Positions 21,657-25,841 of a DNA stretch of 33,918 bases are shown here, in pieces; positions within the stretch are counted from its first letter, which is position 1; each line of letters begins with the position of its first letter. Source of the stretch: Thermotogota bacterium (lineage in GTDB: Bacteria; Thermotogota; Thermotogae; Petrotogales; Kosmotogaceae); contig JAYEJL010000181.1 of NCBI GenBank assembly GCA_034660555.1, forward strand, positions 1 to 33,918. The letters run 5' to 3'. The notes beneath the pieces were generated by a model. That model was not told the DNA's origin. It worked only from the letters and a program-made list of their open reading frames with translations, and searched no databases. The translations under genes were made by a program, and so were the position numbers.

Positions 21657-22841
21657 ATGGGAATTAAAATCATGCCATAGGTAAAATGGGTTGGTAAGGT
21701 AGATTGGGAACTTGAAACATTTCATGGAGATGACTATTCAACACATAGAGGTTCCTCCTATAATTCTTATGTAATTGAAGACGAATTTAATGCATTGATT
21801 GACACTGTATGGGCTCCTTACGCCAGGGAATTCATAAAAGAGCTTGAGAAAGAAATAAATCTAGACGACATTGATGTAATAGTAGCAAATCACGAAGAAA
21901 TAGATCACAGTGGTGCACTTCCTCTCTTAATGGAACGCATACCGGATAAACCTATTTACTGCACACATAATGGCGTTAAATCACTTCAAGGCCACTATCA
22001 CAAAGTCTGGAATTTTAATCCTGTCAAAACCGGAGACAAACTAAATACTGGTAATCATGAACTTATGTTTATTGAAGCACCAATGCTTCACTGGCCTGAC
22101 AGCATGTTCACTTACATGACAGGTACAAATATCTTGTTCAGCAATGATGCCTTTGGTCAACACTACGCTACAGAATTGCTCTATAATGATCTGGTTGATC
22201 AGGCGGAGCTATATCAAGAAGCAATAAAATACTACGCAAATATATTGACTCCCTTTAGTACTCTTGTAAAAAAGAAGATAGAAGAATTTGCTTCATTAAA
22301 TCTACCTCTTGATATGATTTGTACCAGTCATGGAGTTATCTGGAGAGATAATCCCATGCAAATTGTTGAAAAATACCTTAGCTGGGCAGATAAGTACAGT
22401 GAAAATCAAATTACCATAGTATATGAAACCATGTGGGGCGGCACAAGAAGAATGGCCGAAGCAATATCAGAGGGCATAAAGGCAAATTCTAATGTAACTC
22501 TTAAACTACTAAATGCAGGTAAGGCCGACAAAAATGATATTATTACTGAAATTTTTAAATCCAAAGCCATATTGCTGGGTTCTCCCACAGTAAATAAGGG
22601 TATTTTATCTTCTCTAGCCGGTCTTCTTGAAGAAGTCAAGGGACTGGGGTTTAAAGGAAAGAAAGCGGGATCTCTTGGTACTTATGGCTGGAGCGGAGAA
22701 AGTGTTAAAAGATTAGAATCAATACTTGATGGAGCAGGCTTTGAATTAGTTACAGAGGGAATTTTTGAGAAATGAGAACCTGATGAAAATATTCTTGATA
22801 ATTGTAGAGAGTTTGGCCAAGATTTTGCAAAAAAAGTCTAG
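21657..22841 (+). pseudogene. fprA: Flavodiiron protein (FprA/NorV-type) with two in-frame stops
   Basis: AGGAGG + ATG 21657. MGIKIMP*VKWVGKVDWELETFHG (TAG 21678-21680), HxExDH, LHWPD, SNDAFGQH, flavodoxin domain, then EK*EPDE (TGA 22773-22775) continuing to TAG 22839-22841. Confidence 0.9.
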
Positions 22842-24346
22842 CACCTATTGATTTTCTTTAGCAAATCGAACACTTTAGAATAAGCACCAGTAACATCATG
22901 TATGGTGCAGCTTCTTTGATTTACATTAGCCATTTCAGCAGCTTTCCCCATAATGTAAGAACCCAGAGAGGCTGCATCATAACCATTCATATTTTGTGCC
23001 ATAAAAGCTCCTATAGTTCCGGAAAGTAAATCACCACTACCGCCCTTTGCAAGTCCAGTATTTCCTGTCATGTTCAGGCGTATGTCCTTATCTTTATCGC
23101 TAATAATTGATGTTGATCCTTTTAATATAAGAGTTGTTTCCCATTCACTGGCATATTCTCTTACCAATTCAACGTTGTTAATCAACTCATTTATTCCTTT
23201 GCCTGTTAGTTTTGATAATTCTCCTGGATGTGGTGTAATAACTGTATCATCAATATTTTTGAGTAGCTTCATATCACCTTTTATTGCCAAAAGTGCATCG
23301 GCATCTATTAGCACCTTTGATAAATCGAGATTTGAAAGCATCTTCAGTAAATCAAGTACAAAGTTCTTACTTTCCAATTCCCTTCCAATTCCAGGACCAA
23401 TCACAAGTACATCTACGTCTTTCATGATTGGTAAATCACTTTCAACAAGATTCTTTTTTTCAGAACCATAAGCAATAATCTGAGGGACATTATTTCTTAT
23501 TACTTTCTGTACCTTCTCTGGAGTATAAGTTATTACCTTTCCACAACCTGAAATAATTGCACCTTGAGCTGCCATTAAAGGCGCACCAGTATAAACTTCG
23601 TTCCCTCCTACTATCATTACCTTTCCATATGAGCCTTTGTGCCCCCATGGATCTCTATCGGGCAGTAGTTCTTTTGCTAGTTTTGAATCAATACATTCAC
23701 ATTTTGCGAATTTATTGATTATCTTTTCAGGAAAACCAATATTTTTAACTATCAATTCACCTGTGTAATATTTTCCTGGTTGCAAATAATGCCCAATTTT
23801 TGACAGTCCAAATGTTACGGTTACATCAGCTAAAAAAGCTATTTGATTTACTTCACCAGTGTTACCATTGATTCCCGAAGAAATATCAATGGCCACTCTG
23901 CTACATTTATGACTGTTTATCACATTAAACACATCTATGATTTTACTTGGTAATGTACCTTTAAATCCCGTTCCAAAAATTCCATCAACTACGACTTCAG
24001 AATTTTTTATATCAGCAATTAAATCATTAAAGTTATCGATTTTTTTTATGGCACCTCCAATATCAGCAAATAAATCACGGTTATGTATACAGTTTTTAGT
24101 TTTTGGATTTTTCCATGAATAAGCTATAACATCGTAGCCACTGACCTTCAATCGTCTTGCAAGTGCATAACCATCTCCGCCATTGTTACCAGGACCACAT
24201 AAAATCAGTACTCTTCCTCCGAATTTTTCTTTAATTACATTCATCACTTCAATTGAAGCAGATTCCATTAGAACAAGTGAAGGTACACCCATTTCAATGG
24301 TTTCCTTATCTATAGATTTCATTTCATCTGGAAATACTATTTTCAT
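22838..24346 (-). CDS. nnr: Bifunctional NAD(P)H-hydrate repair enzyme (epimerase + dehydratase)
   Basis: LMESA, GPGNNGGDG, DGIFGTG, HKGSYG, GPGIG, DADAL, TPHPGE and GGSGDLL motifs. Confidence 0.96.
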   Translation of the reverse strand: MKIVFPDEMKSIDKETIEMGVPSLVLMESASIEVMNVIKEKFGGRVLILCGPGNNGGDGYALARRLKVSGYDVIAYSWKNPKTKNCIHNRDLFADIGGAIKKIDNFNDLIADIKNSEVVVDGIFGTGFKGTLPSKIIDVFNVINSHKCSRVAIDISSGINGNTGEVNQIAFLADVTVTFGLSKIGHYLQPGKYYTGELIVKNIGFPEKIINKFAKCECIDSKLAKELLPDRDPWGHKGSYGKVMIVGGNEVYTGAPLMAAQGAIISGCGKVITYTPEKVQKVIRNNVPQIIAYGSEKKNLVESDLPIMKDVDVLVIGPGIGRELESKNFVLDLLKMLSNLDLSKVLIDADALLAIKGDMKLLKNIDDTVITPHPGELSKLTGKGINELINNVELVREYASEWETTLILKGSTSIISDKDKDIRLNMTGNTGLAKGGSGDLLSGTIGAFMAQNMNGYDAASLGSYIMGKAAEMANVNQRSCTIHDVTGAYSKVFDLLKKINRC

Positions 24347-24433
24347 GCTAATCCCTCCAAAAAAATTATATCACTAATAAATGACACTGTTTTAGTACAA
24401 GTAAACCCTATATTTAGATAAAAATTATGATTA

Positions 24434-24463
24434 TTGACTTTCTTTAATAAAAAGGTGTATATT
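24434..24463 (+). promoter_or_regulatory. Sigma70-type promoter TTGACT-N18-TATATT
   Basis: Both hexamers match consensus at 5/6. Predicted start about 24469-24470. Confidence 0.6.
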
Positions 24464-24466
24464 GAA

Positions 24467-24488
24467 ATTGGATGTCCGGACATCCAAT
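24467..24488. promoter_or_regulatory. Perfect 22-bp palindrome over the predicted transcription start (operator and/or 5' hairpin)
   Basis: attggatgtccggacatccaat is its own reverse complement. Confidence 0.7.
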
Positions 24489-24509
24489 CTTAAACCGGGA
24501 GGTGATAGA

Positions 24510-24554
24510 TTGGTATATAAAAGCAGTCTAATTGAGGTGATTTTTGAACCTTAG
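24510..24554 (+). CDS. Candidate 14-aa peptide MVYKSSLIEVIFEP
   Basis: GGAGGTGA at 24498-24505, TTG 24510, TAG 24552-24554. Confidence 0.4.
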   Translation: MVYKSSLIEVIFEP

Positions 24555-24586
24555 TTACCTTCCGGACTTAAATTTAGTCTGGTCAT

Positions 24587-24612
24587 GCCACGGCTTTGTC
24601 GTGGCCTTTTTT
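24587..24612 (+). terminator. Intrinsic terminator
   Basis: gccacggc-ttt-gtcgtggc stem followed by cTTTTTT. Confidence 0.8.
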
Positions 24613-24628
24613 ATGGGAAAATTTGTTT

Positions 24629-24637
24629 TGTTATAAT
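24629..24637 (+). promoter_or_regulatory. Extended -10 promoter for the Fe-ADH gene
   Basis: TGtTATAAT downstream of the terminator, 40 nt before ATG 24678. Confidence 0.6.
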
Positions 24638-24677
24638 TTATATTGAATATAATTTCATATCAAGGAGAGGTGATAAT

Positions 24678-25841
24678 ATGTATAAGATTACTTCATTTCT
24701 ACCAACGAGAATTATATTTGAAGTGTCTGCAGTAAAGAGATTACCAGAAGAAGCTAAGAAATTAGGCAAAAAAGCAATGATAGTAACAGGAAGACACAGC
24801 ACGAAAGAATCTGGTCTGTTGGACAGAGTAAAGAAGTTACTCAAAGATGCTGGTATAGAATCTATTGTTTTTGATAAAGTTATCCCAAATCCGCTGAGTA
24901 CTCATGTAGATGAAGCAGCTGATATAGCAAGGAAAGAAAATATTGAATTTGTAATAGGACTTGGAGGCGGCAGCCCAATTGATACCGCAAAATGTGTTGC
25001 GGTAGCTGCAATAAATGATGGAGGTATCTGGCGATTCGTTGATGTGGAAAAAGATGATATACCTGCAAAAGCATTACCAATTATAGCAATACCAACTACT
25101 CATGGAACCGGTACAGAGGCTGACCCATTTGCCGTACTTACCAACCCTGAAACCAAAGAAAAGATAGGTACAGGATATGATGTAACATTTCCTGCTGTAT
25201 CTTTAGTTGATCCTGAAGTAATGTTAACTCTTCCAAAAGACCAAACTGCTTATACATCCATGGATGCTTTTTACCATTCAATTGAAGCATTTCTTAATAT
25301 AAAATCAAACCCTTACTCTGATTTACTTGCACTTGATTCTATGAAAAGAGTTGTCACTAATCTTCCTGTTGCTTTTGAAGATGGCAGTGATATTGAAGCC
25401 AGAACAGAACTTACATGGGCGAATATTGAAGCCGGAATAACTGAAACTTTAACCGGTGTTATTGCCAATCATTGTATTGAACATGGACTGAGTGGATATT
25501 ATCAGGAGATCACTCATGGTCTTGGCCTTTGCATAACTGGGCCATATCTTTTTGAACATTTCTTTGATGATGCGTATCATAAACTTGCTGTTGTTGGCAG
25601 GGAGGTTTTTTCTGTTAACGAATATGACGATAAGAGAGCTGCCCGATTAATGATCACCAAATTACGCTTTTTCCAGGAACAATTCAATTTAAATAAAAAA
25701 CTCTCAGGACTTGGTGTGAAAAAAGATGTTCTTGAGAAAATTGCATCAACAGCTTATCGTACAATGAAAGGCATTGTTGTAGAATCTCCAGGTAATTTAG
25801 AAGAGAAAGATTTACTACAAGTACTTGAAATGTCTTATTAA
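24678..25841 (+). CDS. Iron-containing alcohol dehydrogenase
   Basis: GLGGGSPIDTAK, IPTTHGTGTE and metal ligands DAFYH/NHCIEH/THG. SD GAGGTGA precedes ATG 24678. Confidence 0.95.
   Translation: MYKITSFLPTRIIFEVSAVKRLPEEAKKLGKKAMIVTGRHSTKESGLLDRVKKLLKDAGIESIVFDKVIPNPLSTHVDEAADIARKENIEFVIGLGGGSPIDTAKCVAVAAINDGGIWRFVDVEKDDIPAKALPIIAIPTTHGTGTEADPFAVLTNPETKEKIGTGYDVTFPAVSLVDPEVMLTLPKDQTAYTSMDAFYHSIEAFLNIKSNPYSDLLALDSMKRVVTNLPVAFEDGSDIEARTELTWANIEAGITETLTGVIANHCIEHGLSGYYQEITHGLGLCITGPYLFEHFFDDAYHKLAVVGREVFSVNEYDDKRAARLMITKLRFFQEQFNLNKKLSGLGVKKDVLEKIASTAYRTMKGIVVESPGNLEEKDLLQVLEMSY

Follow-up and report, generated by a model that had tools for sequence, protein, structure and literature searches.

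A candidate stand-alone small RNA with a predicted three-way junction, conserved within one genus of Thermotogota

The DNA between nnr and the iron-containing alcohol dehydrogenase (Fe-ADH) gene of this Thermotogota bacterium is best read as encoding a new, genus-restricted, stand-alone small RNA (sRNA). It was studied as part of the window, the whole stretch of 33,918 nucleotides that was analysed. The sequence-only reading had left three identities side by side: an undescribed sRNA of about 143 nt, a switchable mRNA for a micro-peptide, or an attenuator-like leader. We found a structured unit that runs from promoter to terminator, finds no match in Rfam at threshold and is under purifying selection. 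These features favour the sRNA, while the attenuator leader and the functional micro-peptide were not borne out. We tentatively prefer, with confidence a little short of even, the interpretation that the locus is a gene in its own right, whose product is a stable RNA of about 143 nt that functions as such and not via a peptide, most likely as a riboregulator in trans.

Layout of the unit and its predicted fold

The unit is flanked by nnr, a bifunctional NAD(P)H-hydrate repair gene on the minus strand (22838..24346; Pfam Carb_kinase 8.8e-48, YjeF_N 6.7e-42), and by the Fe-ADH gene on the plus strand (24678..25841; Pfam Fe-ADH 1.2e-54, ADH_Fe_C 4.2e-34). An extended -10 of nnr, TGATATAAT, can be read from the sequence at 24373-24365 on the minus strand. 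Between the two genes, all on the plus strand, lie a promoter-like site, a 5' stem, a three-way junction, a linker and an intrinsic terminator. Promoter, stems P1 to P3, Shine-Dalgarno sequence (SD), TTG start, TAG stop, competing hairpin and terminator were all found where the sequence-only reading had placed them.

The promoter-like site (24434..24463) has a -35 of TTGACT (24434-39), an 18-nt spacer and a -10 of TATATT (24458-63), and agrees with the consensus at 10 of 12 positions. Spacing from the -10 puts the predicted +1 at G24470, which is the first base of the terminal stem. Promoter-like sites were not in excess in this region (3, against 3.2 +/- 1.4 in shuffled sequence), so the support for this one comes from conservation and not from scan frequency. 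Across four species the -35 never varies and the -10 reads TATATT or TATAGT; the conserved block starts at the -35, and the DNA just 5' of it is unalignable. At the other end, the terminator (24587..24612) is made of an 8-bp stem with a UUU loop (24587-605), a C and six U residues (24607-12). A scan of the region found this one terminator, against 0.3 +/- 0.5 in shuffles. It is kept in the four species with one loop indel and one G-U/A-U change, and its pair probability in the ensemble is 0.97-0.99.

The predicted RNA begins with a terminal stem-loop, GGAUGU-CCGG-ACAUCC (24470..24485), that forms a perfect 16-bp palindrome in the DNA. A single-stranded stretch, AAUCUUAAA (24486..24494), follows and is partly unpaired in the ensemble. 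The junction itself (24495..24565) consists of P1 (24495-505/24555-65; 11 bp, of which 2 are G-U), P2 (24506-12/24524-30, loop 24513-23; 7 bp, 1 G-U) and P3 (24532-38/24548-54, loop 24539-47; 7 bp, 2 G-U), with linkers of 0-1 nt between them. Its stems pair two SD-like purine runs with two anti-SD-like pyrimidine runs. An A/U-rich linker, ACUUAAAUUUAGUCUGGUCAU (24566..24586), leads on to the terminator and carries the 3' arms of two further helices, the competing hairpin (24576-82) and a long-range helix (24577-82).

We found that the full RNA folds at -51.6 kcal/mol with a z-score of -4.44, a value that none of 200 shuffles equalled. The sequence-only reading had named a fold no better than shuffled controls as grounds for giving up its proposal. 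The junction stands well clear of this on the plus strand, with z of -4.9 at 37 C and -5.2 at 65 C and 0 of 300 shuffles equal at either temperature. On the minus strand the corresponding values were -1.1 and -0.3, equalled by 35/300 and 104/300 shuffles; the strand specificity is due to the five G-U pairs. In the ensemble, P1 to P3 have pair probabilities of 0.90-0.94 at 37 and 60 C, and the junction is present in the minimum free energy (MFE) structure at 37, 55, 65 and 75 C. These calculations show, within the energy model, a fold that is specific to the plus strand and stable to heat. An RNA thermometer is disfavoured by the same nearest-neighbour predictions, because the P1 that hides the SD falls only from 0.94 at 37 C to 0.91 at 60 C and P1 to P3 persist in the MFE at 75 C.

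The competing hairpin (24562-68 with 24576-82) had been proposed to strip the base of P1. Its complementary arms are present, but as a switch it finds no support, having an equilibrium probability of 0.00-0.01. The 5' hairpin (24470-85) is likewise minor at equilibrium (0.01-0.09), and the MFE structure pairs 24476-81 with 24577-82 in its place; the alifold consensus includes the 5' stem. At equilibrium most of the RNA is paired and few bases are left free.

Conservation, distribution and possible traces of transcription

The 143-nt core is 94.4, 95.8 and 95.1% identical to that of three congeners. The coding sequence of nnr is 89, 72 and 73% identical among congeners and that of ADH 79 and 75%, with 65 of 148 four-fold sites in ADH identical (44%). 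Second codon positions of the neighbour gene are less well conserved than the RNA; the ADH promoter region is conserved too (84-98%). Within 24470-24586 there are seven variable sites among the four genomes and one more in a metagenome contig, none of them among the 62 stem bases. All variable positions fall in loops, linkers or the terminator. Every stem base of P1 to P3 is invariant in the four species, the five G-U pairs included, and changes within the junction are confined to two loops. Outside the junction, the 5' stem (24470-85) is invariant in 4/4 species, AAUCUUAAA is invariant but for a one-base deletion within its A run in one congener (G003), and the linker is invariant over 24573-85 and variable at 24572 and 24586.

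Covariation on P1 to P3, to which the sequence-only reading had looked for confirmation, was not seen. None of the 43 predicted pairs shows a compensatory change, and there is no covariation to test because all variable positions lie outside the stems. Taken at the level of aligned sequences, the comparison shows strong purifying selection on the RNA. An RNA that stays nearly unchanged beside drifting neighbours probably has a function.

Model R1 detected the RNA in four of 151 Thermotogota genomes, which all belong to one genus. At the family level (25 genomes) the four genus members score above 185 bits and all others at most 27.8 bits, and at the order level 4 of 51 genomes are positive. 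Eight sub-threshold loci aligned mainly through their terminators; the best of them, in G014, was rejected since it folds differently (z -2.0). A pattern scan of 185,579 species with both P1 arms exact, which a changed P1 would escape, returned the same three MAGs only. The same exact-arm pattern in metagenomes gave two loci, neither matching R1 at E <=1, and blastn in distant mode gave no match in plasmids and phages. In a fifth species of the genus (G001, 92% complete) neither the RNA nor, with these queries, nnr and the ADH orthologue were found, so a loss of the RNA there cannot be inferred. In the homologue and synteny search suggested at the outset, four species of one genus conserve the RNA, and it was found at none of 27 tested ADH-orthologue loci of other genera (none beats E 0.68 against the model). 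The genus is uncultured and has been found in oil-field, brine and digester samples.

The claim that the element belongs to no known riboswitch or other Rfam family held up, in that Rfam 15 gave no match at gathering thresholds over the whole window. A tRNA/tmRNA scan of 24300-24750 found none, and no prior description was found in the open-access literature.

Sequencing runs gave a possible trace of the transcript. An RNA library contains a 146-nt contig corresponding to 24469-24613. This is a weak hint of expression because assembly-graph breaks explain contig ends too; contigs from that study's DNA run end at 24469 as well, and another contig of the RNA run spans 24316-24498 and crosses the promoter. 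Cover in these runs consists of assembled contigs with one depth figure per contig, so depth cannot rank the parts of the locus.

The buried reading frame and competing explanations

The junction encloses a ribosome binding site and a complete short reading frame. The SD GGAGGTGAT (24498-506) is followed by a 3-nt spacer and a TTG start at 24510, from which a 14-codon frame, MVYKSSLIEVIFEP, runs to a TAG stop at 24552-54, so that SD, start and stop (24498..24554) are all bracketed by the fold. We found 28 copies of GGAGGTGAT in the genome; 17 precede ORFs of at least 50 codons, and 11 of these do so at 3-nt spacing. By this count, GGAGGTGAT with a 3-nt spacer and a start codon is the standard ribosome binding site of the genome. 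The match of GGAGGTGAT to the anti-SD is presumed, the 16S 3' end being absent from the assembly.

The frame is intact in 4/4 species, but most of it is encoded by stems that never vary in any case, so its intactness carries little information. Five changes occur in it, one synonymous and four non-synonymous (Y>H, S>G, I>V, E>K), with four at first codon positions. They give no sign of selection on the peptide, although five changes make weak evidence, and the functional micro-peptide of the sequence-only reading is disfavoured on this count. Another SD with a TTG behind it (24534-46) is peculiar to this genome, which shows that chance can produce such pairs here. The second frame, which would run from TTG 24544 through the terminator, was rejected: the relatives lack its start and have the frame shifted.

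It is unlikely, though deserving of some weight, that the RNA is a dual-function or small mRNA in which P1 opens in response to a protein, an RNA, a ligand or extreme heat, the 30S subunit loads, and either the peptide or the act of translation, unfolding the whole junction, is the output. The canonical binding site with its preferred spacing, the frame kept intact in all four species and its bracketing by the fold speak for it, as does the precedent of Spot 42, an sRNA within which the 15-residue protein SpfP is encoded (as presented in PMC8916003). Yet the substitution pattern is the one expected without peptide constraint, the intact frame is barely informative, the start codon is TTG, the second SD-plus-TTG pair suggests that a chance origin is possible, and P1 and the junction withstand the temperatures given above. 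A related proposal, to which we give a low probability, treats the RNA as a self-contained riboregulator gated by translation. The junction would cage a ribosome binding site of the strongest type and the 14-codon frame until a ligand, protein, RNA or stress opened P1. A single ribosome pass would then unzip P2 and P3 and free the anti-SD-like strands 24548-65 and the linker, turning an inert rod into an active regulator or the reverse, with the act of translation and not the peptide as the signal. If true, this would explain why every stem base is frozen, beyond what pairing alone needs, and would represent a stand-alone switch coupled to a micro-ORF.

A cis-acting leader, in which transcription from 24434-63 reaches ADH and the junction sets termination against read-through, appears quite improbable. 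The arrangement invites it: the RNA lies directly 5' of ADH on the same strand in three of the genomes (G000, G003 and G004; the G002 contig stops before ADH), and a junction followed by a terminator is a riboswitch-like layout. The 5' part of ADH (24670-24732) has no RNA-library contig cover, against 387 in the DNA run, though uncovered parts prove nothing. Against it, neither the MFE structures from 37 to 75 C nor the ensemble contained a pairing that competes for either terminator arm, which leaves the RNA with no antiterminator. In addition, the extended -10 that the sequence-only reading had assigned to ADH proved to be conserved: TGTTATAAT (24629..24637), a match at the sequence level that lies outside the RNA and between its terminator and ADH, is invariant in 4/4 species. 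An attenuator is unlikely because there is no antiterminator and ADH keeps this extended -10 of its own. Orthologues of ADH are present in 60 of 151 Thermotogota genomes, and the RNA is nonetheless missing from the 27 foreign loci; in G011, ADH follows a co-directional gene by about 30 nt. The relatives of ADH also include P0002 and P0005, at 88% and 77% identity. The attenuator-like leader is thus not sustained. A leader-peptide attenuator in particular was rejected, as MVYKSSLIEVIFEP has no codon run, its stop lies 33 nt 5' of the terminator stem and an antiterminator is lacking.

Two further readings place the function in the surface of the fold or in the DNA. In one, which we regard as improbable, the junction is a protein- or ligand-binding scaffold serving as decoy, platform or orphan aptamer, and an A4/U5 contact between the loops perhaps keeps P2 and P3 next to each other. 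Stems and linkers that are near-invariant beyond pairing needs, with five unchanged G-U pairs, would suit such a role, as would the want of an outstanding mRNA target. The A tract (24519-22) and the U tract (24541-45) persist between variable flanks, and the sole change, A>G at 24522, would still allow pairing with U; this pattern concerns five variable sites and is statistically not meaningful. The junction has almost no unpaired bases for a pocket, the neighbouring genes suggest no partner protein, and CsrA was not found in the genome (95.5% complete). In the other, which is very improbable, the block is promoter or operator DNA, with the 16-bp palindrome as a repressor site or with shared control of nnr and ADH, and the fold is incidental or due to chance. 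The perfect palindrome at the predicted +1 and the conservation of the adjoining ADH promoter region are in its favour. However, 143 contiguous conserved nucleotides go far beyond operator size, the fold has z of about -5 on the plus strand against about -1 on the minus strand, and variation avoids the stems. Palindrome sites at <=3 mismatches number 32, against 28 in the control, with one other site at <=2 mismatches, so the genome shows no regulon of such sites.

The preferred reading as a stand-alone sRNA has its own difficulties. No compensatory change is seen in any of the 43 pairs, few bases are free at equilibrium, a purely non-coding RNA would not be expected to carry a canonical ribosome binding site, and the contig break at 24469 is mirrored in the DNA run while another RNA-run contig crosses the promoter. 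Nor does any target stand out from shuffled controls. Among 2011 putative start regions (crude gene calls), complementary 10-, 11-, 12- and 13-mers numbered 18, 8, 3 and 0, against shuffled means of 19.2, 5.5, 1.4 and 0.3, and the best seed duplexes were equalled or beaten by 35/40, 24/40 and 24/25 shuffled seeds. The start regions of ADH and nnr were unremarkable, at ranks of 0.26 and 0.76 for the 5' stretch and 0.92 and 0.12 for the linker. Candidates from whole-RNA duplexfold were rejected as loop-ridden artefacts.

For the stand-alone sRNA we propose the following mechanism. A sigma-70-type promoter would drive transcription from G24470 as far as the terminator, which would be constitutive. 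The heat-stable three-way junction would keep the ribosome binding site and the 14-codon frame shut and may form the rigid scaffold of a riboregulator acting in trans. Targets and, putatively, Hfq would make contact with the invariant unpaired stretches (24486-94 and 24573-85), with the A/U-rich linker and with the U-tailed terminator.

Relation to known RNAs and significance

The closest likeness is to Hfq-type trans-acting sRNAs. The unit is intergenic, about 143 nt from promoter to terminator and narrow in range, and consensus scans and conservation give it, at the sequence level, the own promoter and U-tailed intrinsic terminator of that class. An A/U-rich stretch just 5' of a terminator fits an Hfq-binding module, and here one precedes a U6 terminator. 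The genome also encodes Hfq (PF17209, 92.2 bits against a cut-off of 27, at G000:C84:1017-1208). The RNA differs in having a closed three-way junction as its body where Hfq-type sRNAs have a row of hairpins with a free seed; in addition, our scans gave it no target, and the binding of Hfq is presumptive.

SgrS/SgrT and RNAIII/hld are dual-function sRNAs with very short ORFs. The present RNA resembles this class, and Spot 42/SpfP as presented in PMC8916003, in that a tiny ORF with a credible-looking ribosome binding site lies within a small structured RNA. It differs in that stems bury the SD and the entire frame, translation would start at TTG and the few substitutions show no peptide constraint, and it has no sequence similarity to Spot 42, SgrS or RNAIII.

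At permissive E-values, the best Rfam match in 24340-24690 was PrrF (RF00444), with 27.6 bits and E 0.0078 in that 351-nt search; the others reached at most 15.7 bits. PrrF is a Pseudomonas RNA. The order of parts is alike, with a TTGAC promoter, two hairpins and a terminator. Membership was rejected since the score falls far below the gathering threshold of 90, the match skips the 55 nt that contain P2 and P3, and one PrrF hairpin is unmatched.

Purine-type 'tuning fork' riboswitches share a P1 that encloses two hairpins, an intrinsic terminator thereafter and the possibility of a loop-loop contact. In contrast, the RNA described here has junction strands of 0-1 nt, no antiterminator and a predicted promoter between its terminator and the next gene. 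It also matches no Rfam riboswitch and has no gene-family link beyond one genus.

Hardly any sRNAs have been described for the Thermotogota. A table in one review has a single annotated sRNA for Thermotogae (PMC9029176), and the multi-omics account of T. maritima gives 13 putative ncRNAs and a definable secondary structure for none of them (PMC3636130). The reach of the present RNA is narrow, being one uncultured genus, so the gain is local unless its mechanism proves new. Its predicted fold persists at 75 C and its conservation exceeds that of its neighbour's second codon positions, so it may offer a clean entry point to RNA regulation in thermophiles with unusually strong ribosome binding sites. 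It would also show how such organisms silence a perfect ribosome binding site inside an RNA.

Layout and distribution of the unit

The assembly holding the window comprises 2.1 Mb in 188 contigs, the window being contig C181. A 331-nt gap between nnr, a bifunctional NAD(P)H-hydrate repair gene on the minus strand (22838-24346; Carb_kinase 8.8e-48, YjeF_N 6.7e-42), and the plus-strand gene for an iron-containing alcohol dehydrogenase (Fe-ADH, 1.2e-54; true start 24678) houses the RNA unit, whose features all lie on the plus strand. A promoter-like site (TTGACT, 18-nt spacer, TATATT; 24434-63) has 10/12 consensus matches, and the predicted +1, G24470, seven bases 3' of the -10, opens a perfect terminal stem-loop (24470-85). 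Reading of the sequence then gives three stems joined by linkers of 0-1 nt: P1 (24495-505 with 24555-65; 11 bp, two G-U), P2 (24506-12 with 24524-30) and P3 (24532-38 with 24548-54). The SD GGAGGTGAT (24498-506) stands three bases 5' of TTG 24510, which opens a 14-codon frame ending at TAG 24552-54. Further 3' are an alternative hairpin (24562-68 with 24576-82), a terminator (8-bp stem, 24587-605, then T6) and the extended -10 of ADH, TGTTATAAT (24629-37). Every element named by the sequence-only reading (promoter, P1-P3, SD, TTG, TAG, hairpin, terminator, ADH -10) was recovered where it had been placed. Taken from the sequence, the anatomy looks like that of a stand-alone sRNA gene, with a conserved promoter, a +1 at the terminal stem, a rigid body, an A/U-rich stretch and a constitutive U-tailed terminator.

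We found that nnr has its own extended -10, TGATATAAT (minus strand, window 24365-24373), which a consensus scan missed because there is no -35 and from which the nnr 5' UTR would be about 12 nt long, starting at the SD. Adjoining nnr is an ORF of the flavodiiron-protein type (21795-22775; metallo-beta-lactamase/ODP and flavodoxin domains), and the neighbourhood has a redox flavour (flavodiiron protein, NAD(P)HX repair, Fe-ADH).

BLASTN against 41 related genomes identified full-length copies in three congeneric species, at 95% (G002) and 91% (G004 and G003) identity over 207 nt. With a covariance model (R1) built from the four copies, the RNA was found in 4 of 25 genomes of the family (each above 185 bits), 4/51 of the order and 4/151 of the phylum. 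The search across Thermotogota that had been proposed thus yielded conserved relatives, but within one genus only. A pattern demanding both P1 arms found no carrier beyond the same three MAGs among 185,579 species' genomes; in metagenome contigs it found two loci, neither matching the covariance model. Plasmid and phage collections gave no match to the RNA. No copy was found in the fifth species of the genus (92% complete); since nnr and the ADH orthologue were also not found there with the queries used, the locus may simply be unassembled.

Weaker family-level matches scored at most 27.8 bits and aligned mostly via terminators. The best, in another genus (G014), was rejected as a homologue, having a different fold. 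This unit (L032:1455-1667) has a 31-codon ORF behind GGGAGGTGA, then hairpins and a terminator, and lies 5' of a 328-codon ORF; in stem and tail (GCCACGG..CCGTGGC, T run, TATGG) it nearly matches the RNA here, and it scores 27.8 bits with R1 without forming the same junction.

Conservation and folding of the RNA

The 143-nt core is 94.4% (G002), 95.8% (G004) and 95.1% (G003) identical among the congeners, compared with 89, 72 and 73% for the flanking nnr coding sequence and 79 and 75% for ADH coding sequence; DNA directly 5' of the -35 is unalignable. Between this genome and G004, ADH codon positions 1, 2 and 3 are 88, 95 and 54% identical, and 65 of 148 four-fold sites are identical. Set against these values, conservation of the core equals or exceeds that of second codon positions, at a distance where silent sites are near saturation. 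This sequence comparison argues for selection on the RNA and is the strongest result of the analysis. The ADH promoter and 5' UTR region (24613-24677), with TATAAT boxes at 24632-37 and 24648-53, is well conserved too: identity is 84-86% in G004 and G003 (58-65 nt compared) and 98% in G002, where 41 nt can be compared.

The 143-nt RNA has a predicted energy of -51.6 kcal/mol versus -33.8 +/- 4.0 for dinucleotide shuffles (z -4.44; 0/200 as good), so the possibility that it folds no better than shuffled sequence failed. For the junction alone (24495-24565) z was -4.9 (37 C) and -5.2 (65 C), and none of 300 shuffles was as good at either temperature; the reverse complement gave -1.1 and -0.3 (35/300 and 104/300 as good). 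It is therefore the five G-U pairs that tie the fold to the strand bearing the promoter and terminator. P1-P3 are kept in the minimum-energy structure at 37, 55, 65 and 75 C, with pair probabilities of 0.90-0.94 (37 and 60 C). These models point to a fold beyond chance.

The competing hairpin, which had been proposed to strip the base of P1, reaches an ensemble probability of at most 0.01 and is disfavored. The 5' hairpin (24470-85) has an equilibrium probability of just 0.01-0.09; the minimum-energy structure instead closes the RNA by pairing 24476-81 with 24577-82, and on thermodynamics alone either of these two 5' conformers may form in the cell.

Seven places vary in 24470-24586 among the four genomes (one base of the A run 24491-94; 24515, 24516, 24540, 24546, 24572 and 24586), and a metagenome contig adds an eighth, 24522. 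All eight lie outside the 5' stem, P1, P2 and P3, which together make up 62 bases; by hand, (55/117)^8 is about 0.002. Compensatory changes, suggested as an R-scape-type check on P1-P3, were found at 0 of 43 predicted pairs in the four-copy alignment. Support for the fold therefore comes from its energy, its strand asymmetry and where the variation falls, and not from covariation. In the loops, an A4 tract (P2, 24519-22) and a U5 tract (P3, 24541-45) are kept as surrounding positions vary; the sole tract change, A>G at 24522, still allows pairing with U. The tracts may form a loop-loop contact, at sites too few for statistics.

The small reading frame and the ADH gene

The genome contains 28 copies of GGAGGTGAT, of which 17 have a start codon within 3-5 nt and an ORF of at least 50 codons; 11 of these 17 use the 3-nt spacing seen here. 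GGAGGTGAT, three bases and a start codon make up the standard ribosome binding site of the organism, and the site of the 14-codon frame is real-looking. The assembly lacks the 3' end of the 16S rRNA. The 14-codon frame is uninterrupted in each of the four species. Its five substitutions comprise one synonymous (GTA>GTG) and four non-synonymous changes (Y>H, S>G, I>V, E>K), the latter all at first codon positions, a pattern expected of unconstrained change limited to RNA loops and therefore no evidence of peptide selection. In four genomes and one metagenome contig these few changes gave no sign of it. Of the proposed switchable micro-peptide mRNA, the conserved frame and ribosome binding site stand; peptide constraint is not supported.

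A 31-codon frame also begins at a second SD-plus-TTG pair (24534-46) and extends from TTG 24544 through the terminator (24544-24639). It was rejected, being confined to this genome: in the relatives the start reads TTA and a 1-nt indel in the loop shifts the frame. Eighteen bases of the P3 5' arm and loop (24529-24546) equal the ribosome binding region, SD included, of a topoisomerase-I-like gene (G000:C60:2601-2618; about 1501-1518 of locus L003; E 0.03 in this genome), whose GTG start is placed two bases 3' of where the TTG stands in the RNA. The same 17-mer also appears in the congeners, the fifth species included. The identity could be chance or mimicry of that site.

An attenuator-like ADH leader had also been considered. 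At all temperatures tried, neither arm of the terminator had a competing partner (minimum-energy or ensemble), and the terminator itself has a pair probability of 0.97-0.99. ADH has its own extended -10 between the terminator and the gene, as had been noted, and this is invariant in 4/4 species. ADH orthologues occur in 60 of 151 Thermotogota genomes, and the RNA was present at none of the 27 other-genus loci tested; in G011, another Thermotogota genome, ADH lies about 30 nt after a transaldolase-like gene of the same direction. These data suggest that the RNA is probably not an ADH leader, and a cis leader is improbable.

Expression data and mode of action

Runs containing DNA of the unit come from metagenomes of brine, oil-field, crude-oil, aquatic and sediment origin, most with only about a tenth of the sampled words; in four runs compared with the window, that share consists of relatives' contigs over the conserved core and flanks. 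Depth in runs is a single figure per contig. In one RNA library, X9, a 146-nt contig covers 24469-24613 end to end, and the ADH 5' part (24670-24732) is uncovered, against a cover of 387 in the study's own DNA run. Contigs of that DNA run likewise break at 24469, 24498 and 24592/24595, where co-occurring strains diverge, and a further X9 contig (24316-24498) spans the promoter. The 146-nt contig is a weak hint of a transcript.

No riboswitch or other Rfam family was matched at threshold, in agreement with the sequence-only reading. The best permissive match, PrrF (27.6 bits versus a gathering score of 90), was rejected; it reflects just the order promoter, hairpins, terminator.

That the unit represents some kind of genuine, selected and structured RNA element is probable in our view; a DNA-level element or chance seems highly improbable. 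Our tentative preference is for a trans-acting riboregulator in which the junction would serve as scaffold and would also keep a perfect ribosome binding site silent. The closest in working is an Hfq-type sRNA, and Hfq is encoded in the genome (92 bits); CsrA was not found there. No candidate target emerged: complementary 10-13-mers in 2011 crudely called start regions were at shuffled expectation, the best seed duplexes were equalled or beaten by 35/40, 24/40 and 24/25 shuffled seeds, and the nnr and ADH start regions were unremarkable as targets. Sites like the 24470-85 palindrome formed no family in the genome (32 versus 28 in the control). A structure-gated micro-ORF or dual-function RNA, which the intact frame would suit, is a less likely reading; dual-function sRNAs such as Spot 42, reported to encode a 15-residue protein (PMC8916003), are also a closest likeness. 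A protein- or ligand-binding scaffold is unlikely.

We found no earlier description of the RNA in the open-access literature. Table 1 of one review has a single annotated sRNA for Thermotogae (PMC9029176), and one account of 13 putative T. maritima ncRNAs describes no secondary structure definable at 80 C and four with small ORFs without peptide evidence (PMC3636130). The proposal of an undescribed sRNA of about 143 nt held up on its conserved core, its fold and the Rfam result. The RNA is convincingly selected and folded and belongs to no described family; it makes a new family within a known kind of sRNA, confined to one genus, in a phylum where known sRNAs are very sparse.
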